Below are positions 19,780 through 62,577 of a stretch of 64,000 bases of DNA, piece after piece. A program made the position numbers and the translations under genes. The DNA is from Escherichia coli. Lineage in GTDB: Bacteria > Pseudomonadota > Gammaproteobacteria > Enterobacterales > Enterobacteriaceae. The stretch is from the NCBI RefSeq assembly GCF_003018255.1, contig NZ_CP027440.1; one strand, 5' to 3'. Every line of letters begins with the position of its first letter. Positions within the stretch are counted from its first letter, which is position 1. Below the pieces are notes generated by a model. The model ran no database searches and was not told where the DNA came from. It saw only the letters and a list, made by a program, of their open reading frames with translations.

Positions 19780-19972
19780 CGCGGGTAAGCCGGATGCGCT
19801 GGTGGATCCACGCGTCCACCTCGCTTTCCAGCCAGGCGACGTGGCGGCTATTGAGTCGAATGGACGGCGGAAACTGTTGCAGCTGGATTTGTCGATAAAT
19901 CCACGATTTACCGAAGCCGATTTTATCTTCCACCTGGCGTAAGCGTAAAAATCTGTCGCTATTCATAACCAT
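19772..19972 (-). CDS. alpA: AlpA-family transcriptional regulator / excisionase-like DNA-binding protein
   Basis: 66 aa; RLRQVEDKIGFGKSWIYRQI... helix-turn-helix typical of AlpA. Confidence 0.6.
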   Translation of the reverse strand: MVMNSDRFLRLRQVEDKIGFGKSWIYRQIQLQQFPPSIRLNSRHVAWLESEVDAWIHQRIRLTRDV

Positions 19973-20104
19973 TCCTCCTGTGTCCAGATTCGTTCACATC
20001 AGCACGATAGGCGTGGTTATCAAAGCAGCAGCGTCCCTGCCAGGCAGTAAAAATCCTTATCTGGGTTAGTGAGAGTTGTTAGTTGAAAGGGTTAGTTGAT
20101 CGCG

Positions 20105-21172: not shown

Positions 21173-21210
21173 ATCCATTAGTATAATATCAATGGATAAA
21201 GGCTTCTGTT

Positions 21211-23157: not shown

Positions 23158-24305
23158 TGAAAAAAATTACGTCTTTAACATTAAAAAATTTCAAAGCTTA
23201 TAAAGAACAGAGTTTTGATTTTAGTAATTTAACTGTATTTTGCGGTAATAATTCTGTTGGTAAAAGTACGGCTATTCAAGCTATCGGTATGTTTCTCCAA
23301 TCAGATATGAATGGTAACAGTAATCTAAAAATAAATGGCGATTTAGTTCATGTCGGAGACTTCGACGATATTCATAATTTCAGTATGCGTGAGGATGATG
23401 TTTTATATTTAAAATATACATTTGAAGACGATACGGCTTGCTGGGGATATGGTATAGAAGAAGGGGATGCTAGAGAAGAACTTTCTAGGAAAAATGAATT
23501 ACCTTTTATTGGGTGTGATAAACAATTAAGAACTATAACAAACTCACTTAAAGATAACTTTTCATTCCAATATTTGGAAGCGGAGAGATTTGGTCCAAGA
23601 GATAATATTCCATTATCACAGCACAATTATCATGAAGGTTGGCTTGGGAAAAATGGGGAACATACAATTGAAGTTCTTGAGAGTTTGGTCACAAGGAGGC
23701 GTTTAAATTTTTCTGCTCAAGAGGATCCTAGGAAACATGAAGGAATTATTAATAATAATGTTTTCAATCATATTGAAGCATGGATGTCTGAGATTTCACC
23801 AGGGCATCGTATCTCACCTAGAATTGAGGCTAGGGCGAATGTTGCATTTAATGTCATAATCCCTTCACCTGGACAATTAACGAAACCTATTAACATAGGA
23901 TTTGGATTTAGTTATGCTCTTAGTATTGTCACTGCTTTAATGCTGGCATCAAAAAATGAACTCGTTATTATTGAAAATCCTGAGGCTCATCTACATCCAA
24001 GAGGTCAAAGCTATTTAGGACGACTTATTGCTTTATCAGCAAAAGCAGGGATCCAGGTTATTATTGAGACTCATAGTGATCATCTTCTTAATGGCATAAG
24101 AGTAATTGCACGCACAGATCCAACTTTTGATGCTTCTCTTTTTACTCTTTACTATATTTCACGAGAAAATGATGAAACATCTGTCGCCAAAATAAAAATA
24201 AATAATGAAGGGAAACTTTCCGAATGGCCTAGAGGGTTCTTTGATCAACAATCACAGGATATGTATACGATAATGACAGGCTCTTTTGATCATCCCAATA
24301 TTTAA
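23157..24305 (+). CDS. ABC/SMC-like AAA ATPase (AAA_15/AAA_21-type with DUF3696-like C-terminal region)
   Basis: ORF track 23154 (GTG); ATG at 23157 overlaps upstream TGA (TGATG) with GGGGAG RBS. Walker A GNNSVGKST; ENPEAHLHP Walker B/D-loop signature; ETHSDH H-loop. Confidence 0.75.
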   Translation: MKKITSLTLKNFKAYKEQSFDFSNLTVFCGNNSVGKSTAIQAIGMFLQSDMNGNSNLKINGDLVHVGDFDDIHNFSMREDDVLYLKYTFEDDTACWGYGIEEGDAREELSRKNELPFIGCDKQLRTITNSLKDNFSFQYLEAERFGPRDNIPLSQHNYHEGWLGKNGEHTIEVLESLVTRRRLNFSAQEDPRKHEGIINNNVFNHIEAWMSEISPGHRISPRIEARANVAFNVIIPSPGQLTKPINIGFGFSYALSIVTALMLASKNELVIIENPEAHLHPRGQSYLGRLIALSAKAGIQVIIETHSDHLLNGIRVIARTDPTFDASLFTLYYISRENDETSVAKIKINNEGKLSEWPRGFFDQQSQDMYTIMTGSFDHPNI

Positions 24306-25270: not shown

Positions 25271-26344
25271 CTATATAACACAATCTTCCATAAAAGAATC
25301 TAGAAATAAATCATTTATTCCTTTAGGTTTTCTTCGGTCGCATAGAGAGTATAATTCTTCAACTGAAGAGTAAGGGAAGAATTTAGCTTTTAATTCAATG
25401 AATTGGGGCATGTTTGCAAATTCTATCACCTTTGCTCGATATTCATCAGGAGCAACGATAGTCCAACGGATATCTTGTAATCTCGGTGCATGATCATAGA
25501 ATTGTTTCATGCGAGTCAGACCACTTTTTATACCAGTACTGTGTTCAATCTCCATTACTGCTGGCATCATGCGGCCTTCCCTAAACCAAATGCAGTCTAT
25601 AAGACGAGCATCTTTAATCGCATCATTATACGATTGGAGTACTTGCTCATCAGATAATGAACTTATTACACCGTCCATTTGCGCTATAGCTTTACCATTA
25701 TATTGTAAGCTACGATCATTGGCTGCTACCCAAGTATCTAAACCTAAACAATAACCTATTTTTACTAAGGCAATTTGTATCTGAGCATGACGTCTTTTTT
25801 CTTCAATAGTCATGCCTTTAGTCGGTTTAATTGTCTCAATATCAACGCTTTGGTGAACAACATCGAAGCTCATTTCAGAGACAACAATATTAGTCTGGTG
25901 CTCAATTAACAAACCATTAGTATGTGGCATATCTGGCAGAAAAATCAGATGCTTATGTCCTGGTTTTATAGACTTTTGTGCATTCATGATTTCCAGTCTG
26001 GCTGGCCTACACCAATAGAACTCTGGAGTATGTGCGAGCAAGCTCTCCAATACCGAGCGGGTGTTGTAACTGGCACCGAAAACCCTTTCAACGTTGACAG
26101 GTCTGTTTTCTTCGAGTGCATTTGCAAGTCGCCAAAGCATTTGAGTCGAAATACTCTCTGTTTTAGCTGTTGCTTGAGTTTGACCTTTCTTAGGATCAAA
26201 TCTCTTTATTTCGATAGGACCTTCGGGATGTTGGATACGTACAATCTCAATCTTCCCGCTATTCCTATCGTTTATATAGTTAAACAGCGTATTTTTGGGT
26301 AAGCTCGAAATCGCCTGAACCAGATTCGATGCTGTTATCCTCAT
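25271..26344 (-). CDS. Putative Type II restriction endonuclease partnered with the adjacent C5-methyltransferase
   Basis: 357 aa ORF directly downstream of and overlapping the MTase 3' end (about 65 nt, ATG at 26344 with AGGA RBS); no family motif recognised; call is from gene context. Confidence 0.5.
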   Translation of the reverse strand: MRITASNLVQAISSLPKNTLFNYINDRNSGKIEIVRIQHPEGPIEIKRFDPKKGQTQATAKTESISTQMLWRLANALEENRPVNVERVFGASYNTRSVLESLLAHTPEFYWCRPARLEIMNAQKSIKPGHKHLIFLPDMPHTNGLLIEHQTNIVVSEMSFDVVHQSVDIETIKPTKGMTIEEKRRHAQIQIALVKIGYCLGLDTWVAANDRSLQYNGKAIAQMDGVISSLSDEQVLQSYNDAIKDARLIDCIWFREGRMMPAVMEIEHSTGIKSGLTRMKQFYDHAPRLQDIRWTIVAPDEYRAKVIEFANMPQFIELKAKFFPYSSVEELYSLCDRRKPKGINDLFLDSFMEDCVI

Positions 26345-27419
26345 TACTGTATCCTAAATGTTGCAAAATTGATTGGGCAATACCGAGCGCGGCGATATAG
26401 GGAACTCCGTTTCCGACTGTTTTAAACATATTCGACAAAGTCATATCCCCTGGTAGCTCAAAATTTTTTGGCAAAGACTGGATTGCCAATGCTTCAGCGA
26501 CCGTAATACGACGAGGTTTGTATGGGTGAAGGTGAACTTCATTATTACCATATGCTGCTGTTGGAGAGTATCTCCAGCGATGAAGCCTTTTATATGATTT
26601 TTTACTATCGTCGCCTTCTTCTACTGACTGGAATCTTGCTAAACCGGCTCGGGCCGTAAATACATGTTTAGCGTTTGGATGATTGGTAACATCGTTTTTC
26701 TCGAACCAGTATTCTATAGTAAGTTCTTCTGGAATACCTTGCGGGCATTCCATACTTGAGTCTTCTTCGTATGTGTTTGTTGTTGGCCAAGGGAACTGGA
26801 AAGCTTCCTTATTGGGGTATATTTGGCCACTCCATTCGAAGTTTTTGGCTAAAGACTTATCAAGAAAACCAACTAAAATAATCCTTTCTCGATCTTGAGG
26901 CGCACCGTATTCAATTGAATTAATCAATCTTTCATGCAGGATATATCCTACTGAAGCTAGTTCATTCTTAATTTGTTCGAAAAATTCTCTATGTTTAAGA
27001 GTCCGGTATAAGCCTTTAACGTTTTCAAAAAGGAAGAAATCAGGCATCATTTCAATTATCAGGTCAATGTAACTTTGTGATAATTTGCCATTTTCACCAT
27101 CTTTGCCTTTGTTTTTGCCAGCAACAGAAAAGTCAGGGCATGGTGGTCCGCCAATGAAGCCCACTAGGCGGTTTTCACCTTTCAGTGTTTTCATGCTATG
27201 CTTAATCACTGAATGCTCAATAGTTTCAATGCTTTCTTGGGCATACCCAAAGCGTGGCGGCTGTTTGCCAAGTTTTTTTCTTGAGTGTTTATACGCGTCC
27301 ATGAAGGGAGGATGGAATTCATTGACGAAAACCACCTCATACCCGGCATTTTCGAAGCCTAGGTCAAGAAAACCTGATCCTGAAAAGAATGAAAATATAG
27401 CGGGTTTCATTGTGGACAT
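26280..27419 (-). CDS. DNA cytosine-5 methyltransferase (Dcm-like)
   Basis: 379 aa; motif I FSGSGF, PC motif GGPPCPDFSVAGK, ENV motif ENVKGL. Confidence 0.85.
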   Translation of the reverse strand: MSTMKPAIFSFFSGSGFLDLGFENAGYEVVFVNEFHPPFMDAYKHSRKKLGKQPPRFGYAQESIETIEHSVIKHSMKTLKGENRLVGFIGGPPCPDFSVAGKNKGKDGENGKLSQSYIDLIIEMMPDFFLFENVKGLYRTLKHREFFEQIKNELASVGYILHERLINSIEYGAPQDRERIILVGFLDKSLAKNFEWSGQIYPNKEAFQFPWPTTNTYEEDSSMECPQGIPEELTIEYWFEKNDVTNHPNAKHVFTARAGLARFQSVEEGDDSKKSYKRLHRWRYSPTAAYGNNEVHLHPYKPRRITVAEALAIQSLPKNFELPGDMTLSNMFKTVGNGVPYIAALGIAQSILQHLGYSNEDNSIESGSGDFELTQKYAV

Positions 27420-27644
27420 TTTATACCTATCAAGTTAGCTTAAATTTTTACTAAATATCTCGCTGTACGATCCTACTATTTTACATGATAACTTGTTAAT
27501 TATCAATTTACTTTTTAATATATTAGCAAATAAGACCTGGCACTACTTCAGATTAGATAGTATTCATTGCTATAAAGTTAGGTGTTAATATATTGATTAA
27601 TAGTATAAGCTGCTATTATAGATTTAGAAACCGAAGGAACTTAT

Positions 27645-28100
27645 ATGCCTGATATGAGGTTATTTAAATCAAAAAACACCAAACTTGAGTTAAGAATCAG
27701 GAAGCCGTTGTTTGCCAGAGGATTTCGTTATCGATTGCATAATAGTGGTTTGCCTGGTAGACCAGATATGTATTTCCCTAAATACAATGCAGTCATTTTT
27801 ATCCATGGCTGTTTTTGGCATGGGCATGATAACGGCTGCCCTATATCTCACACTCCTAAAAATAATGAATCGTACTGGCAAAATAAAATCAATAAAAATC
27901 AAGAAAGAGATGTCAAAAATCAATATGTTCTTGCATCTAAAAACATCCGCGTTCTGATTATATGGGAGTGTGCAATAAAACTTAAAAGTATTGATTTTGT
28001 CGATTTTATTGATTACATCGATGAATGGCTTAGAGGTGGGGCAAATTCAACACAGATGAGCGCAAAGGAACCAATGCCGACTTTTGAGTTTCCGAAATGA
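27645..28100 (+). CDS. vsr: Very short patch repair endonuclease (Vsr)
   Basis: 151 aa; Vsr-like sequence incl. FIHGCFWHGH; divergent from the C5-MTase as is typical. Confidence 0.85.
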   Translation: MPDMRLFKSKNTKLELRIRKPLFARGFRYRLHNSGLPGRPDMYFPKYNAVIFIHGCFWHGHDNGCPISHTPKNNESYWQNKINKNQERDVKNQYVLASKNIRVLIIWECAIKLKSIDFVDFIDYIDEWLRGGANSTQMSAKEPMPTFEFPK

Positions 28101-28588: not shown

Positions 28589-29353
28589 TCGGAACATCAA
28601 TAGACGTCAACGGACGTTTTTTTATGACTGAAATCCGCGCCACACAAGGCTTTTCGCTATTTTTCGCTCAACCTAAGTCAACCTACATCAACTTACTGAT
28701 GTGGATACAGCTACAGCTGCGGCTATATCCCGATTCGATAATGTTTGTACCCACACAAAACCCTTGAAAGGCTACAAGGCTGAAATTGTCTAAACCATAG
28801 AGATGATTTTTATGATCCAGTCTTTCTCTTGTTGAGATAGTTCCAGTTTGCTCACTCGTGTTAAGAAGGTATTGATCACCTGAACATCCGAATTGGTGAG
28901 CCTATTTAATAGAGCGGGTGGTATACCTTTACTAACAATCGCTTTGCGGTGACTTTCGTAGTTTTTATTACTCATTGTTGATCCTCAAAAATCATTGTAT
29001 GGCGGCATTGATCGTTTCCAGCAACCTTTACTTACTCACTTCGAACTGCATCCTCGTAGACTGTTCCACTACAATAATCGAAAAGGCGCGGATGTCCATT
29101 CAGGTATCCCGCTAATACGTATAGCAATAACAATGGCTTATGCGGCGCGCGCTGTTCACCCTTGTGCCAGATTTTTATATTGGCAATTGCCTGCTGTAGC
29201 GATTTACTGGAAGCCATTGATATCCCTGGCAGTGAAATAATTGCGATCATGCTCGCAAATTTTCTGCTGTTCAAGCCTGCAAGTGAAGATATATTACCTT
29301 GATCTCATTTGTTTTTTTGCTGCCTGTTCTGAGAACGTATAAGGACATTCTCC

Positions 29354-30004
29354 ATGAATAAACTCCCTGATCATCTTCCGCGGCGGTATATCATCGAAGC
29401 TATCCATTTATGGGATGCGGGAGAAACTCATCAGTTCCAGCCTGCGCGGTTGTATGAGATTGAATATCATGGCCGACGTTACCCCTCGAAGGCGATTGCT
29501 GGCATCGCAGCGACATTGATGACGGGGACGCAATTTACCCCTGCGGATTTCACCGGCGGAATAAAATCTAAATGCGTCAAACTACTCATAGAGCAGGGAT
29601 TTCATATTCATCAGGATAAAGCCGCTGCGGCTCCCATAGCCGACGTTCTGTTCCCGGATGAGTTGCCGTCGCAGGAGACATACCTTGAAGGTGCGGCGAT
29701 AAAGGTGACAGTAAACCGCTATGAACGCGATAAAAAGGCCCGAGATAAAGCGGTCGAACATCATGGATGCCAGTGCAACGTATGCGGCGTTGATCTGGTG
29801 AAGATCTATGGTGATATCGCTGAAGGCTTTATCCATATGCATCACCTGGTGCCGCTTTCAGCCATTAAAGAGGATTACCAGCTGGATCCAGTTAATGATT
29901 TGCTGCCTGTGTGCCCTAATTGCCATGCGATGCTGCACCGACGCAAACCACCGTTTTCACCGGAGGAGTTAAAAGCGTTGATGGATGCAAATAAATCAAA
30001 TTAA
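29354..30004 (+). CDS. HNH endonuclease with uncharacterised N-terminal domain
   Basis: 216 aa; C-terminal HNH motif CQCNVCG...HMHHLVPLS...N...CPNCH. Confidence 0.7.
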   Translation: MNKLPDHLPRRYIIEAIHLWDAGETHQFQPARLYEIEYHGRRYPSKAIAGIAATLMTGTQFTPADFTGGIKSKCVKLLIEQGFHIHQDKAAAAPIADVLFPDELPSQETYLEGAAIKVTVNRYERDKKARDKAVEHHGCQCNVCGVDLVKIYGDIAEGFIHMHHLVPLSAIKEDYQLDPVNDLLPVCPNCHAMLHRRKPPFSPEELKALMDANKSN

Positions 30005-30011: not shown

Positions 30012-30992
30012 TCACCTTTCGCGCCAAAACCGCAAAATTGCTTCTACAAACCTGTCAGAAATAATCCCCCGACGGGCTGCCGCGCTGAAATGACTGCTTC
30101 GCAGTGCCGTCGTCCAGTTCTCCGGTGACCGGTACGCTGAACCGTAATATCCCGTGCTTAAATCGTCCGGATCTTCATCAGGCGCGTTCGTCAGTCCTCT
30201 TTCACCTTGTTGCTGGAAGTCGACGAAAATAATATTGGCTAAAACATTATTTTGATAATTGCCATAAATCGCTTCATACGCATGAGGGAAATTTTCTTTC
30301 CAGTACCAGGTGGTATCGCCGCAAAACCACGGTGCGTCAGTAATATTATTAAGCTGAGAATGGTATTGTTTTAGATCCCTACGAAAGGCTTCAACCATAT
30401 GATTAAAGTGTTGAGGGTGTGACGAGTAGTCACAGGTCATTAAGTCAAATTCGCCTTGCATCCAGCATACGCCGAGGAATTTGTTCTGCGGATTTTTTGC
30501 CAGTGCGGCTCGCGTTCTGCTGACTAAATCCTGGTACAGCGGAGTATCCGTTCCCCAACGACAAGCATCATGGCTGGCTCCGTGCCGTTCTGAATATGTC
30601 CCTTCGCTGCCCGCGGTAAAAGCCGATCCGCCACGGCAACACGGAACGATGAGAACCCCTGCGTTATCAGGAATAAAGGGCAGTAATTTCCGTGCAATAT
30701 GCAGTGCCTGGCCAACGGTGCCGTACTGTGTTTGATGATTTGTTGCCAGAGGATGGTGATAACCCTGCATATCCTGAACATCGTGTGGGCAGTGAGTCAG
30801 TGGAATAATGTCGTTAAAGTGACATGACGGGCCTCCGGGATGCGTATGCGCAAATCTCGCTAATTGTTTAATTCTGGGATGAGGCGCATCTTCCCTGTCC
30901 GGTAATGGCAGTCCTTCGCCATACGCCATGGCATTAGACTGACCAGCAACGGTAAGAACATAGTAATAATCGGGCGATATTATTGCGTTCAT
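30012..30992 (-). CDS. nanS: N-acetyl-9-O-acetylneuraminate esterase NanS
   Basis: ORF 30012..31019 trimmed to ATG at 30992 (MNAIISPDYYYVLTVAGQSNAMAYG...), 326 aa; nanS-nanM-nanC context. Confidence 0.85.
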   Translation of the reverse strand: MNAIISPDYYYVLTVAGQSNAMAYGEGLPLPDREDAPHPRIKQLARFAHTHPGGPSCHFNDIIPLTHCPHDVQDMQGYHHPLATNHQTQYGTVGQALHIARKLLPFIPDNAGVLIVPCCRGGSAFTAGSEGTYSERHGASHDACRWGTDTPLYQDLVSRTRAALAKNPQNKFLGVCWMQGEFDLMTCDYSSHPQHFNHMVEAFRRDLKQYHSQLNNITDAPWFCGDTTWYWKENFPHAYEAIYGNYQNNVLANIIFVDFQQQGERGLTNAPDEDPDDLSTGYYGSAYRSPENWTTALRSSHFSAAARRGIISDRFVEAILRFWRER

Positions 30993-31056
30993 ATAATTTT
31001 CGCGTAATACAAATGACAAATTGATAGCAGGGCCCCTTTACCGAGGCCCTGAAGCG

Positions 31057-34350: not shown

Positions 34351-34953
34351 ATGAAGAATAAGGCTGATAACAAAAAAAGGAACTTCCTGACCCATAGTGA
34401 AATCGAATCACTCCTTAAAGCAGCAAATACCGGGCCTCATGCAGCACGTAATTATTGTCTGACTTTGCTTTGTTTTATTCATGGTTTCCGGGCGAGTGAA
34501 ATTTGCCGATTGAGGATTTCGGATATTGATCTTAAGGCAAAGTGTATATATATCCATCGATTAAAAAAAGGCTTTTCAACAACGCACCCGCTATTGAACA
34601 AAGAAATTCAGGCTTTAAAAAACTGGTTGAGTATCCGTACTTCTTATCCGCATGCTGAGAGCGAGTGGGTATTCTTATCACGTAAGGGGAATCCACTTTC
34701 TCGGCAACAGTTTTACCATATTATCTCGACTTCCGGTGGTAATGCCGGGTTGTCACTGGAGATTCATCCGCACATGTTACGCCATTCGTGTGGTTTTGCT
34801 TTGGCGAATATGGGAATAGATACGCGACTTATCCAGGATTATCTTGGGCATCGCAATATTCGTCATACTGTCTGGTATACCGCCAGCAATGCAGGGCGTT
34901 TTTACGGCATCTGGGATAGAGCCAGAGGGAGACAGCGTCACGCTGTTTTATAG
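34351..34953 (+). CDS. fimB: Type 1 fimbriae regulatory recombinase FimB
   Basis: 200 aa, tyrosine recombinase motifs (HxxR...Y); matches FimB. Confidence 0.95.
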   Translation: MKNKADNKKRNFLTHSEIESLLKAANTGPHAARNYCLTLLCFIHGFRASEICRLRISDIDLKAKCIYIHRLKKGFSTTHPLLNKEIQALKNWLSIRTSYPHAESEWVFLSRKGNPLSRQQFYHIISTSGGNAGLSLEIHPHMLRHSCGFALANMGIDTRLIQDYLGHRNIRHTVWYTASNAGRFYGIWDRARGRQRHAVL

Positions 34954-35430: not shown

Positions 35431-36027
35431 GTGAGTAAACGTCGTTATCTTACCGGTAAAGAAGTTCAGGCCATGATGCAGGCGGTTTGTTACGGGGCAA
35501 CGGGAGCCAGAGATTATTGTCTTATTCTGTTGGCATATCGGCATGGGATGCGTATTAGTGAACTGCTTGATCTGCATTATCAGGATCTTGACCTTAATGA
35601 AGGTCGAATAAATATTCGCCGACTGAAGAACGGATTTTCTACCGTTCACCCGTTACGTTTTGATGAGCGTGAAGCCGTGGAACGCTGGACCCAGGAACGT
35701 GCTAACTGGAAAGGCGCTGACCGGACCGACGCTATATTTATTTCTCGCCGCGGGAGTCGGCTTTCTCGCCAGCAGGCCTATCGCATTATTCGCGATGCAG
35801 GTATTGAAGCTGGAACCGTAACGCAGACTCATCCTCATATGTTAAGGCATGCTTGCGGTTATGAACTGGCGGAGCGTGGTGCCGATACCCGTTTAATTCA
35901 GGATTATCTCGGGCATCGAAATATTCGCCATACTGTACGTTATACCGCCAGTAATGCTGCTCGTTTTGCCGGATTATGGGAAAGAAATAATCTCATAAAC
36001 GAAAAATTAAAAAGAGAAGAGGTTTGA
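35431..36027 (+). CDS. fimE: Type 1 fimbriae regulatory recombinase FimE
   Basis: 198 aa starting at GTG (MSKRRYLTGKEVQAMMQAVCYG...); matches FimE. Confidence 0.95.
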   Translation: MSKRRYLTGKEVQAMMQAVCYGATGARDYCLILLAYRHGMRISELLDLHYQDLDLNEGRINIRRLKNGFSTVHPLRFDEREAVERWTQERANWKGADRTDAIFISRRGSRLSRQQAYRIIRDAGIEAGTVTQTHPHMLRHACGYELAERGADTRLIQDYLGHRNIRHTVRYTASNAARFAGLWERNNLINEKLKREEV

Positions 36028-36074: not shown

Positions 36075-36388
36075 TTGGGGCCAAACTGTCCATATCATAA
36101 ATAAGTTACGTATTTTTTCTCAAGCATAAAAATATTAAAAAACGATAAAAAGCATCTAACTGTTTGATATGTAAATTATTTCTCTTGTAAATTAATTTCA
36201 CATCACCTCCGCCAAATGTAAAGCTAACGTTTCTGTGGCTCGACGCATCTTCCTCATTCTTCTCTACAAAAACCACCTCATGCAATATAAAAATCTATAA
36301 ATAAAGATAACAATAGAATATTAAGCCAACAAATAAACTGAAAAAGTTTGTGCGCGATGCTTTCCTCTATGAGTCAAAATGGCCCCAA
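36075..36388 (-). promoter_or_regulatory. fimS: fimS invertible switch, apparently in phase-OFF orientation
   Basis: 9-bp inverted repeats TTGGGGCCA (36075-36083) and TGGCCCCAA (36380-36388). The fimA promoter (-35 TTGAGA at 36118-36123, 18-bp spacer, -10 TATGAT at 36094-36099) is on the minus strand next to the fimE-proximal repeat, pointing toward fimE. Confidence 0.7.
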
Positions 36389-36507: not shown

Positions 36508-37062
36508 ATGAAAATTAAAACTCTGGCAATTGTTGTTCTGTCGGCTCTGTCCCTGAGTTCTACAGCGGCTCTGGCTGAAACTACACCCACGACGGTAAAT
36601 GGTGGGACCGTTCACTTTAAAGGGGAGGTTGTTAACGCCGCTTGCGCAGTTGATGCAGGCTCTGTTGATCAAACTGTTCAGTTAGGGCAGGTTCGTACAG
36701 CATCGCTGGCACAAGAAGGAGCAACCAGTTCTGCTGTCGGTTTTAACATTCAACTGAACGATTGTGACACTACTGTTGCAGACAAAGCTGCTATTGCCTT
36801 CCTTGGTACCGCAATTGATGGAACTCATCCTAACGTATTAGCTTTGCAGAGTTCAGCTGCGGGTAGCGCAACAAAAGTTGGTGTGCAGATCCTGGACAGA
36901 ACGGGTGCTGCGCTGGCGCTGGACGGTGCGACATTTAGTGCACAAACAACCTTGAATAACGGTACCAACACCATTCCGTTCCAGGCGCGTTATTATGCAA
37001 TCGGCGAGGCAACCCCGGGTGCTGCTAATGCGGATGCGACCTTCAAGGTTCAGTATCAATAA
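36508..37062 (+). CDS. fimA: Type 1 fimbrial major subunit FimA (allelic variant)
   Basis: 184 aa, signal peptide, pilin fold ending FKVQYQ; N-terminal mature region differs from the K-12 allele as I recall it. Confidence 0.95.
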
Positions 37063-37126
37063 CCTACCCAGGTTCAGGGACGTCATTACGGGCAGGGATG
37101 CCCACCCTTGTGCGATAAAAATAACG

Positions 37127-37666
37127 ATGAAAAGGAAGAGATTATTTCTATTAGCGTCGTTGCTGCCAATGTTTGCTCTGGCCGGAAATAAATGGAATAC
37201 CACGCTGCCCGGCGGAAATATGCAATTTCAGGGCGTCATTATTGCGGAAACTTGCCGAGTTGAAGCTGGTGATAAACAAATGACGGTCAATATGGGGAAA
37301 ATCAGCAGTAACCGGTTTCATGCGGTAGGGGAAGATAGCGCACCGGTGCCTTTTGTTATTCATTTACGGGAATGTAGCACGGTGGTGAGTGAACGTGTGG
37401 GTGTGGCGTTTCACGGTGTCGCGGATGGTAAAAATCCGGATGTGCTTTCCGTGGGAGAGGGGCCAGGGATAGCCACCAATATTGGCGTAGCGTTATTTGA
37501 TGATGAAGGAAACCTCGTACCGATTAATCGTCCTCCAGCAAACTGGAAACGGCTTTACTCAGGCTCTACTTCGCTACATTTCATCGCCAAATATCGTGCT
37601 ACCGGGCGTCGGGTTACTGGCGGCATCGCCAATGCCCAGGCCTGGTTCTCTTTAACCTATCAGTAA
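37127..37666 (+). CDS. fimI: Fimbrial protein FimI
   Basis: ORF 36995..37666 trimmed to ATG at 37127 ([19 protein letters not shown]), 179 aa. Confidence 0.9.
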
Positions 37667-37702
37667 TTGTTCAGCAGATAATGTGATAACAGGAACAGGA
37701 CA

Positions 37703-38428
37703 GTGAGTAATAAAAACGTCAATGTAAGGAAATCGCAGGAAATAACATTCTGCTTGCTGGCAGGTATCCTGATGTTCATGGCAATGATGGTTGCCGGACG
37801 CGCTGAAGCGGGAGTGGCCTTAGGTGCGACCCGCGTAATTTATCCGGCAGGGCAAAAACAAGTGCAACTTGCCGTGACAAATAATGATGAAAATAGCACC
37901 TATTTAATTCAATCATGGGTGGAAAATGCCGATGGTGTAAAGGATGGTCGTTTTATCGTGACGCCACCTCTGTTTGCGATGAAGGGAAAAAGAGAGAATA
38001 CCTTACGTATTCTTGATGCAACAAATAACCAATTGCCACAGGATCGGGAAAGTTTATTCTGGATGAACGTTAAAGCGATTCCGTCAATGGATAAATCAAA
38101 ATTGACTGAGAATACGCTACAGCTCGCAATTATCAGCCGCATTAAGCTGTACTATCGCCCGGCTAAATTAGCGTTGCCACCCGATCAGGCCGCAGAAAAA
38201 TTAAGATTTCGTCGTAGCGCGAATTCTCTGACGCTGATTAACCCGACACCCTATTACCTGACGGTAACAGAGTTGAATGCCGGAACCCGGGTTCTTGAAA
38301 ATGCATTGGTGCCTCCAATGGGCGAAAGCACGGTTAAATTGCCTTCTGATGCAGGAAGCAATATTACTTACCGAACAATAAATGATTATGGCGCACTTAC
38401 CCCCAAAATGACGGGCGTAATGGAATAA
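37703..38428 (+). CDS. fimC: Periplasmic fimbrial chaperone FimC
   Basis: 241 aa, PapD-like chaperone. Confidence 0.95.
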   Translation: MSNKNVNVRKSQEITFCLLAGILMFMAMMVAGRAEAGVALGATRVIYPAGQKQVQLAVTNNDENSTYLIQSWVENADGVKDGRFIVTPPLFAMKGKRENTLRILDATNNQLPQDRESLFWMNVKAIPSMDKSKLTENTLQLAIISRIKLYYRPAKLALPPDQAAEKLRFRRSANSLTLINPTPYYLTVTELNAGTRVLENALVPPMGESTVKLPSDAGSNITYRTINDYGALTPKMTGVME

Positions 38429-38494
38429 CGCAGGGGGAATTTTTCGCCTGAATAAAAAGAATTGACTGCCGGGTGATTTTAAACCGGAGGAATA

Positions 38495-41131
38495 ATGTCA
38501 TATCTGAATTTAAGACTTTACCAGCGAAACACACAATGCTTGCATATTCGTAAGCATCGTTTGGCTGGTTTTTTTGTCCGGCTCTTTGTCGCCTGTGCTT
38601 TTGCCGCACAGGCACCTTTGTCATCTGCCGAACTCTATTTTAATCCGCGCTTTTTAGCGGATGATCCCCAGGCTGTGGCCGATTTATCGCGTTTTGAAAA
38701 TGGGCAAGAATTACCGCCAGGGACGTATCGCGTCGATATCTATTTGAATAATGGTTATATGGCAACGCGTGATGTCACATTTAACACGGGCGACAGTGAA
38801 CAAGGGATTGTTCCCTGCCTGACACGCGCGCAACTTGCCAGTATGGGGCTGAATACGGCTTCTGTCTCCGGTATGAATCTGCTGGCGGATGATGCCTGCG
38901 TGCCATTAACCTCAATGATCCATGACGCTACTGCGCATTTAGATGTTGGTCAGCAGCGACTCAACCTGACGATCCCTCAGGCATTTATGAGTAATCGCGC
39001 GCGTGGTTATATTCCTCCTGAGTTATGGGATCCCGGTATTAATGCCGGATTGCTCAATTATAATTTCAGCGGAAATAGTGTACAGAATCGAATTGGGGGT
39101 AACAGCCATTATGCATATTTAAACCTACAGAGTGGGTTAAATATTGGTGCGTGGCGTTTACGCGACAATACCACCTGGAGTTATAACAGTAGCGACAGTT
39201 CATCAGGTAGCAAAAATAAATGGCAGCATATCAATACCTGGCTTGAGCGAGACATAATTCCGTTACGTTCCCGGCTGACGCTGGGTGATGGTTATACTCA
39301 GGGCGATATTTTCGATGGTATTAACTTTCGCGGCGCACAATTGGCCTCAGATGACAATATGTTACCCGATAGCCAAAGAGGATTTGCCCCGGTGATCCAC
39401 GGTATTGCTCGTGGTACTGCACAGGTCACTATTAAACAAAATGGGTATGACATTTATAATAGTACGGTGCCACCGGGGCCTTTTACCATCAACGATATCT
39501 ATGCCGCAGGTAATAGTGGTGACTTGCAGGTAACGATTAAAGAGGCTGACGGCAGTACGCAGATTTTTACCGTACCCTATTCGTCAGTCCCGCTTTTGCA
39601 GCGTGAAGGGCATACACGTTATTCCATTACGGCAGGAGAATACCGTAGTGGAAATGCGCAACAGGAAAAACCCCGCTTTTTCCAGAGTACATTACTCCAC
39701 GGCCTTCCGGCTGGCTGGACAATATATGGTGGAACGCAACTGGCGGATCGTTATCGTGCGTTTAATTTCGGTATCGGGAAAAATATGGGGGCACTGGGCG
39801 CTCTGTCTGTGGATATGACGCAGGCTAATTCCACACTTCCCGATGACAGTCAGCATGACGGACAATCGGTGCGTTTTCTTTATAACAAATCGCTCAATGA
39901 GTCAGGCACGAATATTCAGTTAGTGGGTTACCGTTATTCGACCAGTGGGTATTTTAATTTCGCTGATACAACATACAGTCGAATGAATGGCTACAACATC
40001 GAAACACAGGATGGAGTTATTCAGGTTAAGCCGAAATTCACCGACTATTACAATCTCGCTTATAACAAACGCGGGAAATTACAGCTCACCGTTACTCAGC
40101 AACTCGGGCGCTCATCAACACTGTATTTGAGTGGTAGCCATCAAACTTATTGGGGAACGAGTAATGTCGATGAGCAATTCCAGGCTGGTTTAAATACTGC
40201 ATTCGAAGATATCAACTGGACGCTCAGCTATAGCCTGACGAAAAACGCCTGGCAAAAAGGACGGGATCAGATGTTAGCGCTTAACGTCAATATTCCTTTC
40301 AGCCACTGGCTGCGTTCTGACAGTAAATCTCAGTGGCGACATGCCAGTGCCAGTTACAGCATGTCACACGATCTCAACGGTCGGATGACCAATCTGGCCG
40401 GTGTATACGGTACGTTGCTGGAAGACAACAACCTCAGCTATAGCGTGCAAACCGGTTACGCCGGGGGAGGTGATGGTAATAGCGGAAGTACAGGCTACGC
40501 CACGCTGAATTATCGCGGTGGTTACGGCAATGCCAACATCGGTTACAGCCATAGCGATGATATTAAGCAGCTCTATTACGGAGTCAGCGGTGGGGTACTG
40601 GCTCATGCCAATGGCGTAACGCTGGGGCAGCCGTTAAACGATACGGTGGTGCTTGTTAAAGCGCCTGGCGCAAAAGATGCAAAAGTCGAAAACCAGACGG
40701 GGGTGCGTACCGACTGGCGCGGTTATGCCGTGCTGCCTTATGCCACTGAATATCGGGAAAACAGAGTAGCGCTGGATACCAATACCCTGGCTGATAACGT
40801 CGATTTAGATAACGCGGTCGCTAACGTTGTTCCCACCCGTGGGGCGATCGTGCGAGCAGAGTTTAAAGCGCGCGTTGGGATAAAACTGCTCATGACGCTA
40901 ACCCACAATAATAAGCCGCTGCCGTTTGGGGCGATGGTGACATCAGAGAGTAGCCAGAGTAGCGGCATTGTTGCGGATAATGGTCAGGTTTACCTCAGCG
41001 GAATGCCTTTAGCGGGAAAAGTTCAGGTGAAATGGGGAGAAGAGGAAAATGCTCACTGTGTCGCCAATTATCAACTGCCACCAGAGAGTCAGCAGCAGTT
41101 ATTAACCCAGCTATCAGCTGAATGTCGTTAA
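38495..41131 (+). CDS. fimD: Outer-membrane usher FimD
   Basis: 878 aa usher. Confidence 0.95.
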   Translation: MSYLNLRLYQRNTQCLHIRKHRLAGFFVRLFVACAFAAQAPLSSAELYFNPRFLADDPQAVADLSRFENGQELPPGTYRVDIYLNNGYMATRDVTFNTGDSEQGIVPCLTRAQLASMGLNTASVSGMNLLADDACVPLTSMIHDATAHLDVGQQRLNLTIPQAFMSNRARGYIPPELWDPGINAGLLNYNFSGNSVQNRIGGNSHYAYLNLQSGLNIGAWRLRDNTTWSYNSSDSSSGSKNKWQHINTWLERDIIPLRSRLTLGDGYTQGDIFDGINFRGAQLASDDNMLPDSQRGFAPVIHGIARGTAQVTIKQNGYDIYNSTVPPGPFTINDIYAAGNSGDLQVTIKEADGSTQIFTVPYSSVPLLQREGHTRYSITAGEYRSGNAQQEKPRFFQSTLLHGLPAGWTIYGGTQLADRYRAFNFGIGKNMGALGALSVDMTQANSTLPDDSQHDGQSVRFLYNKSLNESGTNIQLVGYRYSTSGYFNFADTTYSRMNGYNIETQDGVIQVKPKFTDYYNLAYNKRGKLQLTVTQQLGRSSTLYLSGSHQTYWGTSNVDEQFQAGLNTAFEDINWTLSYSLTKNAWQKGRDQMLALNVNIPFSHWLRSDSKSQWRHASASYSMSHDLNGRMTNLAGVYGTLLEDNNLSYSVQTGYAGGGDGNSGSTGYATLNYRGGYGNANIGYSHSDDIKQLYYGVSGGVLAHANGVTLGQPLNDTVVLVKAPGAKDAKVENQTGVRTDWRGYAVLPYATEYRENRVALDTNTLADNVDLDNAVANVVPTRGAIVRAEFKARVGIKLLMTLTHNNKPLPFGAMVTSESSQSSGIVADNGQVYLSGMPLAGKVQVKWGEEENAHCVANYQLPPESQQQLLTQLSAECR

Positions 41132-41140
41132 GGAGGCGTG

Positions 41141-41671
41141 ATGAGAAACAAACCTTTTTATCTTCTTTGCGCTTTTTTGTGGCTGGCGGTAAGTCACGCT
41201 TTGGCTGCGGATAGCACGATTACTATCCGCGGCTATGTCAGAGATAATGGCTGTAGTGTGGCCGCTGAATCAACCAATTTTACTGTTGATCTGATGGAAA
41301 ACGCGGTGAAGCAATTTAACAACATTGGCGCGACGACTCCTGTCGTTCCATTTCGTATTTTGCTGTCACCCTGTGGTAATGCCGTTTCTGCCGTAAAAGT
41401 TGGGTTTACCGGTGTTGCAGATAGCCACAATGCCAACCTGCTTGCACTTGAAAATACGGTGTCAGCGGCTGCGGGACTGGGAATACAGCTTCTGAATGAG
41501 CAACAAAATCAGATACCCCTTAATGCCCCATCGTCCGCGATTTCGTGGACGACCCTGACGCCGGGTAAACCAAATACGCTGAATTTTTACGCCCGGCTAA
41601 TGGCGACACAGGTGCCTGTCACTGCGGGGCATATCAATGCCACGGCTACCTTCACTCTTGAATATCAGTAA
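41141..41671 (+). CDS. fimF: Fimbrial minor subunit FimF
   Basis: ORF 41138 trimmed to second ATG ([22 protein letters not shown]). Confidence 0.9.
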
Positions 41672-41683
41672 CTGGAGATGCTC

Positions 41684-42187
41684 ATGAAATGGCGCAAACG
41701 TGGGTATTTATTGGCGGCAATGTTGGCGCTCGCAAGTGCGACGATACAGGCAGCCGATGTCACCATCACGGTGAACGGTAAGGTCGTCGCCAAACCGTGC
41801 ACGGTTTCCACCACCAATGCCACGGTAGATCTCGGCGATCTTTATTCTTTCAGTCTGATGTCTGCCGGGGCGGCATCGGCCTGGCATGATGTTGCGCTTG
41901 AGTTGACTAATTGTCCGGTGGGAACGTCGAGGGTCACCGCCGGCTTCAGCGGGGCAGCCGACAGTACCGGATATTATAAAAACCAGGGGACCGCGCAAAA
42001 CATCCAGTTAGAGCTACAGGATGACAGTGGCAACACATTGAATAGTGGCGCAACCAAAACAGTTCAGGTGGATGATTCCTCACAATCAGCGCACTTCCCG
42101 TTACAGGTCAGAGCATTGACGGTAAATGGCGGAGCCACTCAGGGAACCATTCAGGCAGTAATTAGCATCACCTATACCTACAGCTGA
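41684..42187 (+). CDS. fimG: Fimbrial minor subunit FimG
   Basis: ORF 41678 trimmed to MKWRKRGYLLAAMLALASA. Confidence 0.9.
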   Translation: MKWRKRGYLLAAMLALASATIQAADVTITVNGKVVAKPCTVSTTNATVDLGDLYSFSLMSAGAASAWHDVALELTNCPVGTSRVTAGFSGAADSTGYYKNQGTAQNIQLELQDDSGNTLNSGATKTVQVDDSSQSAHFPLQVRALTVNGGATQGTIQAVISITYTYS

Positions 42188-42206
42188 AGCCGAAGAGATG
42201 ATTGTA

Positions 42207-43109
42207 ATGAAACGAGTTATTTACCTGTTTGCTGTACTGCTGATGGGCTGGTCGGTAAATGCCTGGTCATTCGCCTGTAAAACCGCCAATGGCACCGCTA
42301 TCCCTATTGGCGGTGGCAGCGCTAATGTTTATGTAAACCTTGCGCCTGCCGTGAATGTGGGGCAAAACCTGGTCGTGGATCTTTCGACGCAAATCTTTTG
42401 CCATAACGATTATCCGGAAACCATTACAGACTATGTCACACTGCAACGAGGCTCGGCTTATGGCGGCGTGTTATCTAATTTTTCCGGGACCGTAAAATAT
42501 AGTGGCAGTAGCTATCCATTTCCGACCACTAGCGAAACGCCGCGCGTTGTTTATAATTCGAGAACGGATAAGCCGTGGCCGGTGGCGCTTTATTTGACGC
42601 CTGTGAGCAGTGCGGGCGGGGTGGCGATTAAAGCTGGCTCATTAATTGCCGTGCTAATTTTGCGACAGACCAACAACTATAACAGCGATGATTTCCAGTT
42701 TGTGTGGAATATTTACGCCAATAATGATGTGGTGGTGCCTACTGGCGGCTGTGATGTTTCTGCTCGTGATGTCACCGTTACTCTGCCGGACTATCCCGGT
42801 TCGGTGCCGATTCCTCTTACCGTTTATTGTGCGAAAAGCCAAAACCTGGGGTATTACCTCTCCGGCACAACCGCAGATGCGGGCAACTCGATTTTCACCA
42901 ATACCGCCTCGTTTTCACCAGCACAGGGCGTCGGCGTACAGTTGACGCGCAACGGTACGATTATTCCAGCGAATAACACGGTATCGTTAGGAGCAGTGGG
43001 GACTTCGGCGGTAAGTCTGGGATTAACGGCAAATTACGCACGTACCGGAGGGCAGGTGACTGCAGGGAATGTGCAATCGATTATTGGCGTTACTTTTGTT
43101 TATCAATAA
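42207..43109 (+). CDS. fimH: Mannose-binding adhesin FimH
   Basis: ORF 42198 trimmed to MKRVIYLFAVLLMGWSVNAWS; 300 aa; lectin domain begins FACKTANGTAIPIGGGSANVYVNLAPAVNVGQ. Confidence 0.95.
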   Translation: MKRVIYLFAVLLMGWSVNAWSFACKTANGTAIPIGGGSANVYVNLAPAVNVGQNLVVDLSTQIFCHNDYPETITDYVTLQRGSAYGGVLSNFSGTVKYSGSSYPFPTTSETPRVVYNSRTDKPWPVALYLTPVSSAGGVAIKAGSLIAVLILRQTNNYNSDDFQFVWNIYANNDVVVPTGGCDVSARDVTVTLPDYPGSVPIPLTVYCAKSQNLGYYLSGTTADAGNSIFTNTASFSPAQGVGVQLTRNGTIIPANNTVSLGAVGTSAVSLGLTANYARTGGQVTAGNVQSIIGVTFVYQ

Positions 43110-43192
43110 AGAAATCACAGGGCATTGCTAATGCAGGTACGCAATATTACCTGAAGCTAAAACCTGCACGTTAGCCCTTTGTATGCCAGATA

Positions 43193-47904: not shown

Positions 47905-48678
47905 ATGAAATCTGCCACCTCTGCGCAAAGACCTTACCAGGAAGTCGGGGCGATGATCCGCGATCTGATCATAAAGACGCCGTACAATCCTGGCGAACGG
48001 CTGCCACCGGAGCGTGAAATTGCAGAAATGCTTGATGTCACGCGGACGGTGGTACGTGAAGCGCTGATCATGCTGGAGATCAAAGGGCTGGTGGAAGTGC
48101 GCCGGGGTGCCGGTATTTATGTTCTTGATAGCTCAGGCAGCCACAACACAGACAGTCCGGATGCCAACGTCTGTAATGATGCCGGTCCTTTTGAGCTGTT
48201 ACAGGCGCGTCAGTTACTGGAAAGTAACATCGCGGAATTTGCCGCTTTGCAGGCTACCCGCGAAGATATCGTCAAAATGCGTCAGGCATTGCAACTGGAA
48301 GAGCGTGAACTGGCTTCCAGCGCGCCGGGTAGCAGCGAAAGCGGTGATATGCAGTTCCATCTCGCCATTGCCGAAGCAACGCATAACAGCATGCTGGTGG
48401 AGTTATTCCGTCAGTCCTGGCAGTGGCGGGAAAACAATCCAATGTGGATCCAATTGCACAGCCATCTCGATGACAGCCTGTATCGCAAAGAGTGGTTGGG
48501 CGATCACAAACAGATCCTCGCCGCGTTAATCAAAAAAGATGCCCGTGCGGCGAAGCTGGCAATGTGGCAGCATCTGGAAAACGTTAAACAACGTCTGCTG
48601 GAATTCTCGAACGTTGACGATATTTATTTTGACGGCTATCTGTTTGATTCATGGCCGCTGGATAAAGTCGACGCCTGA
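47905..48678 (+). CDS. uxuR: GntR-family repressor UxuR
   Basis: 257 aa; N-terminal winged HTH, FadR-type C-terminal domain. Confidence 0.95.
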   Translation: MKSATSAQRPYQEVGAMIRDLIIKTPYNPGERLPPEREIAEMLDVTRTVVREALIMLEIKGLVEVRRGAGIYVLDSSGSHNTDSPDANVCNDAGPFELLQARQLLESNIAEFAALQATREDIVKMRQALQLEERELASSAPGSSESGDMQFHLAIAEATHNSMLVELFRQSWQWRENNPMWIQLHSHLDDSLYRKEWLGDHKQILAALIKKDARAAKLAMWQHLENVKQRLLEFSNVDDIYFDGYLFDSWPLDKVDA

Positions 48679-49082
48679 TCCCTCATTTCTGGTGCAAAGT
48701 TGAACCGCTTTGCACTATGTATGTTCCCTGAATAGTTAATTATGTTCTGCAGAATATATTATGCGTAAATTAATCATTACGTACGATATATTGTTTTGGA
48801 ATAATTATATATCAGTTTAACGCTGAGAAATTATTCGGAATAATCAGAATATGTTAACGTATTTCCGTTATGTTTAATGACTTTTGTCAAATGATACCTT
48901 TTTAAATAAAAAGTCAGTGGATATTCTTTTCTGTACAGTGTTTTATCTTTGGCGGATCTTATAAATCCCTTATGAAAGTGCCAGGGACGCAATGAGCATA
49001 AAGGAATGATTATGGAATATGAGCATCAACCCAGTGGTGTCCGGCAGCCAGGGCAGGATACAGATGCCACTAAACGTCAGGA

Positions 49083-49475
49083 GTGCGCAAAATGATGCGC
49101 CAATCAGTTCAGACGGTATTACCTGAAAGTACAGGACACAATACGTTATCGCTGCGTGATTCCGTATGCCGGGATCTCTTTCAACTTTTTAGTTCTCCCC
49201 ATTCACCGCTACCAATATTACTTGTTTCAGGCATGCCTGAGTGGCAAGGGCATAATCAGAGCGACAAGCTTCTCCAGAGTTGGTATTGCCGCCAGTTACG
49301 TTCCGCGCTTTTATTTCATGAGCCACGTATTGCGGCATTGCAGGTCAATCTGAAAGAAGCCTATTGCCACGAGTTGGCCATTAGTCTGGAGATGATGCTG
49401 TACCACGATGATGAGCCGCTAACGTTTGACCTGGTCTGGCAGAAGGGGAACTGGCATCGCACGATGCCGCAGTAA
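49083..49475 (+). CDS. iraD: Anti-adaptor protein IraD (RpoS stabiliser)
   Basis: 130 aa matching IraD/YjiD; preceded by an AT-rich regulatory region. Confidence 0.8.
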
Positions 49476-49522
49476 ATGACGGGAAACGCGATACGCGCAA
49501 GACGTATCGCGTTAGGTCACAA

Positions 49523-55265: not shown

Positions 55266-58373
<3,108 letters not shown>

Positions 58374-58488
58374 GATTTTCCTTCCCCGTACCACGGGAGA
58401 TAATGAAAAGAGGCCACATTATTACCATTCTTTTAGTGTGGTTTATTTGATCTCTCTCGCGGTTAGCCACTTAGTTTTTCATGGATTT

Positions 58489-59769: not shown

Positions 59770-59809
59770 AATGTTAAGAATAGAGCCTGACGGCGGGATC
59801 GCGCAAAAA

Positions 59810-62453: not shown

Positions 62454-62543
62454 TCAGAGACTGATGACAAACGCAAAGCTGCCTGATGTGCTACGCTTAT
62501 CAGACCTACATTACCTCTGCAATCTATTGAATTTGCGCGATTT

Positions 62544-62577
62544 GTAAGCCGGATAAGGCGTTCACGCCGCATCCGGT
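62544..62577. repeat. REP element
   Basis: GTAAGCCGGATAAGGCGTTCACGCCGCATCCGG, same family as 47834-47866. Confidence 0.55.

Follow-up and report, generated by a model that had tools for sequence, protein, structure and literature searches.

The stretch between positions 36,508 and 43,109 of the window (the 64,000 nucleotides of Escherichia coli DNA analysed here) is, with high confidence, an ordinary type 1 fimbrial locus whose differences from K-12 represent standing polymorphism and no uropathogenic adaptation. The fimAICDFGH genes it comprises are the structural part of an E. coli type 1 fimbrial locus that is intact, and fimB, fimE and the fimS switch adjoin them on the upstream side [Table 1]. 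The bounds set by an earlier, sequence-only reading were exact, running from the start of fimA (36508) to the end of fimH (43109). That reading had called fimA and fimH non-K-12 alleles and, together with an ICE in the same window, had taken them to suggest a non-K-12 and possibly extraintestinal background. The non-K-12 part is borne out, as every fim gene differs from MG1655 (nucleotide divergence of 1-3% in each gene and 10% in fimA), neither fimA nor fimH was identical to K-12 on alignment, and the ICE lies in the place of KpLE2. An extraintestinal background does not follow from these alleles, since Ala27 of FimH is the majority state, the FimH is of the N70/S78 type, and the longer FimA occurs in many hosts.

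Organization of the fim locus

The order fimB-fimE-fimS-fimA-fimI-fimC-fimD-fimF-fimG-fimH, between nanC (upstream) and gntP (downstream) in the usual chromosomal place, was established from the open reading frames and by comparison with MG1655 and the annotated genome of strain JNE23-011. The K-12 MG1655 locus (b4312-b4320) has the same gene order, gene lengths (fimA being two codons longer in the window), flanks, and fimS repeats and orientation. Silent divergence of 1-3% from MG1655 extends throughout. All fim reading frames are intact, and all products except FimA are 97-100% identical to K-12 in amino acids, with FimE at 100% and the others at 97-99.5%. Profile scores exceeded the curated NCBIfam cutoffs for FimB, FimE, FimA, FimI, FimD, FimF and FimG. 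The best NCBIfam model for FimC (NF011742) gave 257.9 bits against a cutoff of 327, yet the protein matches K-12 FimC at 239 of 241 residues; this identity suggests that the model is over-narrow and the protein normal. By its sequence, the locus is complete, would seem functional, and belongs to the E. coli type 1 chaperone-usher fim loci. In this system, transcription of fimA-H is turned on or off as FimB and FimE invert the fimS promoter element (314 bp), the chaperone FimC and the usher FimD build the FimA rod by donor-strand exchange, and FimF-FimG-FimH stand at the rod tip, where FimH binds mannosylated host glycoproteins.

Table 1. Features of the fim locus in the window (positions counted from the first letter of the window; aa, amino acids; identities are to K-12 proteins).
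Feature	Position	Strand	Description
fimB	34351..34953	+	Tyrosine recombinase, fimS inversion both ways; 200 aa; 199/200 identical; NF007370, 458 bits (cutoff 221)
fimE	35431..36027	+	Tyrosine recombinase, fimS ON to OFF; 198 aa; 100% identical; NF007371, 452 bits (cutoff 222)
fimS	36075..36388	.	314-bp invertible promoter element; 9-bp inverted repeats TTGGGGCCA (36075-36083) and TGGCCCCAA (36380-36388)
Promoter-like site	36094..36123	-	TTGAGA-18-TATGAT; inside fimS, directed away from fimA; promoter scan
fimA	36508..37062	+	Major rod subunit; 184 aa, 161-residue mature form; NF011741 (FimA equivalog), 186.6 bits (cutoff 140)
fimA codons 24-29	36577..36594	+	Encode ETTPTT; variable, two-residue-longer mature N-terminus
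FimR2 sRNA homologous segment	37073..37107	+	In fimA-fimI spacer; from K-12 annotation
fimI	37127..37666	+	Minor subunit; 177/179 identical; NF052361, 332 bits (cutoff 300)
fimC	37703..38428	+	Periplasmic chaperone; 239/241 identical
fimD	38495..41131	+	Outer-membrane usher; 869/878 identical; NF011740, 1132 bits (cutoff 995)
fimF	41141..41671	+	Adaptor subunit; 173/176 identical; NF052362, 286 bits (cutoff 200)
Recombinant tract	41414..42322	+	3' end of fimF, fimG, first 116 nt of fimH; near VCSW7-type haplotype; includes Tyr6 codon
fimG	41684..42187	+	Tip-fibrillum subunit; 162/167 identical; NF052363, 288 bits (cutoff 220)
fimH	42207..43109	+	Mannose-specific tip adhesin; 300 aa, 279 aa mature; Pfam PF09160 FimH_man-bind
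fimH codon 6	42222..42224	+	TAC (Tyr), K-12 ACC (Thr); T6Y in signal peptide
fimH codon 48	42348..42350	+	GCC, Ala27 of mature protein, context NLAPAVNVG; K-12 GTC (Val)

The inverted repeats of fimS are intact and sit where their MG1655 homologues do, and the whole element runs collinear with that of MG1655. In strain VCSW7, exactly the fimS segment lacks a forward alignment to the window, and fimS is therefore inverted in that strain. The promoter-like site inside fimS is presumably the fimA promoter, as reportedly described by Olsen and Klemm (1994). The orientation in the assembly corresponds to phase OFF, as in MG1655, and shows just the state that prevailed in the sequenced culture. Between fimA and fimI, the 81-nt spacer that holds the FimR2 segment shows no difference between the window, K-12 and two other strains (100% identity); an Rfam scan of 33-44 kb returned zero family matches, the FimR2 segment included. 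Farther upstream, beyond nanS-nanM-nanC, the ICE replaces the KpLE2 region that K-12 MG1655 has beyond nanS.

The fimA allele

FimA had been described from the sequence as a 184-residue protein whose mature N-terminal region departs from K-12, and so it is. The K-12 MG1655 protein has 182 residues; the alignment covers 185 positions, with identity at 168 (90.8% in amino acids, 89.9% in nucleotides). The signal peptide is the same, whereas the mature N-terminus is two residues longer, reading ETTPTT against AATT (AATTVNGG) in K-12. There are 13 more substitutions (in K-12 mature numbering N64T, S67D, V71I, A80G, G81T, T83P, N98K, T112A, S120A, E121Q, F138Y, T140I and A142E). Since allele differences of this kind come from deterministic sequence comparison, chance plays no part in them.

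The protein is identical to WP_001561332.1. Among 5,426 complete E. coli genomes, four carry its exact DNA, and 749 public contigs have the exact protein; the closest FimA allele other than this one is, among complete genomes, 98.2% identical. The 30-nt string encoding the ETTPTT N-terminus is far from confined to these, being found in 538 of the 5,426 genomes, from cattle, pigs, poultry, dogs, humans and wastewater. Mature FimA forms of 159 and 161 residues are known, and every variable residue lies on the rod exterior (PMC5798934). The two-residue-longer FimA is thus a common and widespread natural form (PMC5798934; 538 genomes). The 161-residue mature FimA of UTI89 (Spaulding et al., 2018) likewise has two extra N-terminal residues, and the substitutions of the window allele are at sites which that study gives as variable and exterior, the positively selected N64, S120 and F138 among them.

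Divergence from K-12 at this level is not unusual. Among 4,726 genomes, FimA identity to the window allele was at least 99% in 8, 95-99% in 93, 90-95% in 1,934 and 80-90% in 2,691, which makes the 90% of K-12 typical. Relative to K-12, fimA has a dS of 0.26 and a dN of 0.043, against a dS of 0.03-0.09 and a dN of about 0.013 or less in the neighbouring genes. Three of the five positively selected FimA sites (N64, A109, T117, S120 and F138; PMC5798934), namely N64, S120 and F138, are changed between the window and K-12, and two other FimA proteins, P0003 and P0049, combine the window allele and the K-12 allele as reciprocal mosaics. The fimA gene belongs to one of several old allele classes, whose diversity is maintained on the outer surface of the rod. 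Immune or phage-driven diversifying selection combined with intragenic recombination is the likely cause.

The fimH allele and residue 27

The accepted start of fimH is 42207, the longest open reading frame beginning 9 nt earlier at 42198. There are 20 nucleotide differences from K-12, with two codons replaced (T6Y and V27A) and the other 17 differences synonymous (dN/dS of 0.06). The sequence-only reading had pointed out Ala at mature residue 27, which the GTC-to-GCC change in codon 48 confirms; T6Y was absent from it. The protein is identical to WP_001561337.1. Its exact DNA is present in 2 of the 5,426 complete genomes and the exact protein on 741 public contigs, while the version of the same sequence with Thr6 is found on at least 1000 contigs.

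When aligned with K-12 FimH and PDB chains, the mature protein shows Ala27, Asn70 and Ser78 with zero further replacements, which places it in the consensus (N70/S78) clade as distinguished from the S70/N78 clade in PMC3554634. The mature protein is that of K-12 with V27A alone, and every residue of the mannose pocket is accordingly unchanged. The consensus, "evolutionarily primary" FimH of the N70/S78 clade (Dreux et al., 2013; UniProt Q83TY4, WP_000832227.1) has the same 279-residue mature sequence, its sole difference being Thr6 in the signal peptide where the window has Tyr6. No PDB chain that we found matches this mature FimH throughout; the best ones depart from it by A27V (e.g., 1KLF) or by N70S/S78N (e.g., 3JWN). 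FimH is under strong purifying selection, the mature protein here representing the species-wide consensus and K-12 a Val27 variant.

The selective status that had been attached to residue 27 holds in part. The position is treated as positively selected in studies of urinary tract infection (PMC5302871); as a sign of uropathogenic E. coli it fails, because Ala27 is the consensus and the change reported as pathoadaptive is A27V. For phylogroup B2, it is A27V, the K-12 state, that has been described as a pathoadaptive replacement (Hommais, 2003). Among 5,426 complete E. coli genomes, exact matches of 30 nt give the Ala27-coding string in 3,988, O157:H7 and bovine strains included, and the Val27 string in 934, some 430 fimH-bearing genomes being left unclassified owing to other codons or nearby SNPs. 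As Ala27 is both the majority state and the published consensus, K-12 is the variant at this residue, and Ala27 is uninformative on pathotype.

A pathoadaptive nature of the UPEC/ExPEC type for the fimA and fimH alleles, marking an extraintestinal pathogen, is very unlikely. Such a reading could draw on the reported selection at position 27 in urinary isolates, and UTI89 shares both Ala27 and the two-residue-longer FimA. Against it, Ala27 is shared by most genomes, O157:H7 and bovine strains among them, and by the consensus, the FimA N-terminal form is found across many hosts and sources, and none of the pathoadaptive replacements relative to the consensus (e.g., A27V, A62S, G66, G73, A106, T158, V163A and R166) is present in the mature FimH. 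S70/N78-clade FimH (PDB 3JWN_H, 4XOD, 5JQI and others) carries Ala27 and the remaining sequence as in the window; with Asn70/Ser78 in place of Ser70/Asn78, the window FimH falls outside that clade, which is typical of phylogroup B2 strains.

Tyr6 and a recombination mosaic

Tyr6 is the one unusual residue of FimH, its coding string being present in just 4 of the 5,426 complete genomes. From 42225 to 43183 (fimH nucleotide 19 onward), the window is identical to strain 2017.09.02CC, which carries the consensus mature FimH, and the identity takes in the FimTyper typing region (fimH nucleotides 64-552, window 42270-42758). Over 41167-42224, the two differ at 22 positions. VCSW7 shows the reverse, with 4 differences in the 909 bp of 41414..42322 and 21 inside fimH (42323-43091). 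On these comparisons the fimH allele is a recombinant mosaic, in which Tyr6, lying in the cleaved signal peptide, was brought in by a recombined segment of some 0.9 kb covering fimG and the 5' end of fimH.

A functional meaning for T6Y, either in tuning FimH export and hence tip incorporation and the level of piliation, or as the trace left by a compensated frameshift (ATT-ACC-CTG would become ATT-TAC-CTG through an inserted T and then a deleted C), is very improbable. The residue does invite such thoughts: two neighbouring nucleotides are changed in one codon of a protein that is strongly conserved elsewhere, two fimH backgrounds with 20 synonymous differences between them share Tyr6, and the variant persists in nature, given the contigs that carry the exact protein. 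However, the short tract accounts for the sharing without recurrent mutation, Tyr6 is rare and is removed with the signal peptide, and the Thr-to-Tyr change at the border of the n- and h-regions leaves the n-region basic and the core hydrophobic. Recurrent mutation as the source of Tyr6 on both backgrounds was rejected in favour of the recombination tract. We give yet less credence to the more specific proposal that Tyr6 spread between lineages on the fimG-fimH 5' tract and was selected through altered FimH export and so through pilus number or length; if true, Tyr6 would be a tuning of adhesion with the mature adhesin untouched.

Sequencing or assembly artefacts have next to no likelihood as the origin of the fimA and fimH differences. 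Several independent complete genomes and hundreds of contigs contain these fimA and fimH sequences, and the reading frames in the window are all intact; the independent assemblies refute an artefact.

Related genomes and strain background

FimA and FimH of strains JNE23-011 and JNE112863 are identical to those of the window in protein and DNA. Over the whole window, JNE23-011, the nearest genome, differs at 103 positions, 97 of them in one divergent tract at 56.6-63.6 kb, and its fim locus has one SNP, in fimD (41120). The window is thus from a close relative of JNE23-011, and its equation with that very genome was rejected. Its annotation shows arpA absent, yjaA absent and chuA present, i.e., three of the four Clermont markers, and applies to JNE23-011 as distinct from the window's own host. 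On this annotation, the pattern corresponds to phylogroup F, or to G or B2 if TspE4.C2 is present, and to that extent gives indirect support to a possible ExPEC-type background (phylogroups B2, D, F or G). The best non-clonal fimH matches (99.0% identity), from poultry (APEC) and human isolates, point the same way; to judge by strain names, they may resemble the ST117/phylogroup G type. The strains known to share the alleles nevertheless come, where the source is known, from gut, stool or carriage: human isolates in a Japanese reference collection, a stool isolate of a community resident, and a rectal swab of ICU staff. A literature search found no papers naming JNE23-011, JNE112863 or AP045067-72, and two genome announcements present other JNE strains as diarrhoeagenic or Shiga-toxin-producing isolates at a Japanese reference laboratory. 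We found no fimH type or phylogroup in the literature on ST3346 and related strains. In all probability, the alleles mark a non-K-12 lineage with few completed genomes, the nearest genome having a phylogroup F or G marker pattern.

Significance

What is found here about the fimA and fimH alleles is already known. Ala27 is misread as a "mutation" when K-12 serves as the reference, because K-12 carries Val27. Beyond strain typing the value is small, the locus being a normal type 1 fimbrial operon in a non-K-12 lineage rare among completed genomes. In essence, the mosaic fim haplotype is another instance of the recombination and diversifying selection for which the fim locus is well known.

Organization of the fim Locus and Its Phase Switch

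A complete type 1 fimbrial locus occupies its normal place, downstream of nanM-nanC and upstream of gntP-uxuAB (ORF list and K-12 MG1655 alignment); position 36508 is the first base of the fimA start codon and 43109 the last base of the fimH stop codon. FimB, FimE, FimA, FimI, FimD, FimF, and FimG all pass curated NCBIfam models, FimH carries the Pfam mannose-binding domain, and FimC, which scores under the cutoff of its best NCBIfam model, is identical to K-12 FimC at 239 of 241 residues. The system is already thoroughly described, the exact proteins have RefSeq accessions (WP_001561332.1 for FimA and WP_001561337.1 for FimH), and the finding is an ordinary one. In the RefSeq annotation of several related genomes, fimG starts 60 nt further downstream (window 41,684-41,743; 147 aa vs. 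167 aa in K-12); since the window has an uninterrupted full-length frame of the K-12 type, whose product aligns with the FimG model over its entire length, this start is only an annotation inconsistency. The fimA-fimI spacer (37,055-37,135), immediately 3′ of fimA, which varies more than any other gene of the locus, shows 100% identity among the four strains compared and contains the segment annotated in K-12 as the sRNA FimR2 (37,073-37,107).

Features of the fim locus, in window coordinates
Feature	Position	Strand	Basis or remark
fimB	34351-34953		ORF list, MG1655 alignment
fimE	35431-36027		ORF list, MG1655 alignment
fimS	36075-36388		MG1655 alignment
Promoter-like site (TTGAGA-18-TATGAT)	36123-36094	minus	adjoins fimE-proximal repeat, faces away from fimA
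fimA	36508-37062		ORF list, MG1655 alignment
fimI	37127-37666		ORF list, MG1655 alignment
fimC	37703-38428		ORF list, MG1655 alignment
fimD	38495-41131		ORF list, MG1655 alignment
fimF	41141-41671		ORF list, MG1655 alignment
fimG	41684-42187		ORF list, MG1655 alignment
fimH	42207-43109		ORF list, MG1655 alignment

The invertible element fimS is collinear with that of MG1655, and both share one orientation. We take the promoter-like site to be the mapped fimA promoter, which would place fimS in the OFF orientation. In the assembly of the soil isolate VCSW7, the 314-bp element (segment homologous to window 36,084-36,379) is inverted and presumably phase ON; the inversion shows it to be active in nature.

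The fimH Allele and the Genetic Background

Compared with K-12, fimH has 20 nucleotide differences, 17 of them synonymous. One of the others produces V27A in mature FimH, and the remaining two, side by side, change codon 6 from ACC to TAC (T6Y, in the signal peptide), a replacement absent from the sequence-only reading. With FimA at 90.8% identity, the proposal that both alleles are non-K-12, and that FimH has Ala27, is borne out. Together with the ICE, the alleles had also been taken as a pointer to a possibly extraintestinal background. Using 30-nt exact-match probes, in which a mismatch at the second base of codon 48 destroys every 28-nt seed and which leave ∼430 fimH-bearing genomes unclassified, we found the Ala27 string in 3,988 of 5,426 complete E. 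coli genomes, O157:H7 and bovine strains included, and the Val27 string in 934. Ala27 is not informative as a sign of background, and the same conclusion was drawn from sequenced isolates (Dreux et al., 2013). The claim that position 27 is under selection in uropathogenic lineages holds in so far as the position is among the positively selected FimH residues in UTI work (PMC5302871); the pathoadaptive substitution reported in phylogroup B2 is A27V, i.e., the K-12 state (Hommais, 2003). Judging from its residues, the mature FimH is the consensus N70/S78 variant, outside the B2-associated S70/N78 clade (represented by PDB chains including 3JWN_H), and its precursor, with Thr6 in place of Tyr6, matches a sequence that is very frequent in databases (at least 1000 contigs).

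The fim alleles neither support nor exclude an extraintestinal background. A weak and indirect indication comes from the phylogroup markers of JNE23-011, the genome nearest to the window, in whose annotation aceK adjoins iclR (arpA absent), the rrnE 5S gene adjoins yjaB (yjaA absent), and chuA is found within a chu haem-uptake locus; the Clermont scheme assigns this pattern to phylogroup F or, given TspE4.C2, to G/B2.

Nearest Genomes and Mosaic Structure

Exact fimA DNA was found in four complete genomes (JNE23-011, JNE112863, 2017.09.02CC, and DETEC-S792) and exact fimH DNA only in the two JNE strains; across the larger set of assemblies, 749 contigs carry the exact FimA protein and 741 the exact FimH. 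No complete genome outside the JNE strains exceeds 98.6% identity in the gntP-yjiJ core flank, indicating a lineage sparsely covered by finished genomes. Where the source is known, strains with these alleles have come from humans (isolates of a Japanese reference collection), the stool of a Vietnamese community resident (isolate reported to be ST3346 or ST2690), and a rectal swab taken from ICU staff. The window and JNE23-011 are distinct, with 103 differences in 64 kb, one of them in fimD; 97 of the 103 are concentrated in 7 kb from yjiL to yjiR (56,634-63,616), a pattern suggestive of a recombined tract in genomes that are near-clonal elsewhere. Within this tract, mdtM of JNE23-011 is interrupted by an internal stop (pseudogene). 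The iraD region (48,500-49,500) is only ∼82-85% identical to VCSW7 and Z1323HEC0462, in which yjiC (DUF2686) and small genes precede iraD, with none annotated at the corresponding place in JNE23-011; this difference next to uxuR looks like a divergent allele or an indel polymorphism.

Against 2017.09.02CC, identical stretches of the fim region alternate with ∼2% divergent ones: 22 differing sites lie in 41167-42224 and none in 42225-43183 (fimH nt 19 to past the stop codon). Against VCSW7, four differing sites lie in 41414-42322 and 21 in the remaining fimH (42323-43091). Only four complete genomes have the Tyr6 string: VCSW7, Z1323HEC0462, and the two JNE strains. The first two have other fimA alleles than the window, and their fimH differs from that of the window at ∼20 silent sites, as does the fimH of other assemblies encoding the identical FimH protein. 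This alternating similarity and the distribution of Tyr6 indicate that Tyr6 arrived on a short recombination tract covering fimG and the fimH 5′ end. The codon 6 change fits equally well a compensated frameshift (+T/-C in ATTACCCTG) and a dinucleotide substitution. A functional effect of T6Y would be unlikely, because the residue is cleaved off with the signal peptide.

The Adjacent Integrative Conjugative Element

Going by the annotation of the near-identical JNE23-011, window ∼1-30,000 is the right-hand part of a PFGI-1/ICEclc-class ICE, with its right end at ∼30,427-30,993, next to a truncated sialate O-acetylesterase pseudogene, nanS. Among its products are a conjugative ATPase, TraD, PilL2, STY4528/STY4534-type replication proteins, and ParB, with cargo at ∼21,200-24,300, ∼26,300-28,100, and ∼29,350-30,000; the probable defence cargo is a DUF262 and DUF3696 pair, a Dcm methyltransferase with Vsr, and an HNH endonuclease. 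Before the point where the window begins, at 13864-20623 in JNE23-011, this ICE has a further chaperone-usher operon (major subunit, chaperone, usher, and two large fimbrial proteins), directly preceded by a FimB/FimE-like tyrosine DNA invertase of its own; the operon may specify a mobile, phase-variable fimbria.

Allelic Diversity of fimA

FimA (184 aa vs. 182 in K-12; 89.9% DNA identity) has the K-12 signal peptide and, as the sequence-only reading had it, a changed mature N-terminus, with AATTVNGG of K-12 replaced by a form two residues longer that includes ETTPTT. There are 13 other replacements (N64T, S67D, V71I, A80G, G81T, T83P, N98K, T112A, S120A, E121Q, F138Y, T140I, and A142E). Mature FimA comes in 159- or 161-residue forms, UTI89 having the longer, and its variable residues all lie on the rod exterior (Spaulding et al., 2018; PMC5798934); of the five positively selected sites in that study, three (N64, S120, and F138) are changed here. 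The exact ETTPTT coding string is shared by 538 complete genomes, whose sources are cattle, pigs, poultry, dogs, a frog, wastewater, and humans. Among 4,726 matching genomes, identity to the window allele is ≥99% in eight, 95-99% in 93, 90-95% in 1,934, and 80-90% in 2,691; the 90% identity of K-12 is typical, and the allele is unusual only as every fimA allele is. Reciprocal mosaics of the window and K-12 FimA among proteins of the same 90% cluster fit intragenic recombination. Against K-12, dS of 0.26 and dN of 0.043 in fimA exceed those of neighbouring fim genes (dS 0.03-0.09, dN ∼0.013 or less), which points to old allele classes and not to recent change.
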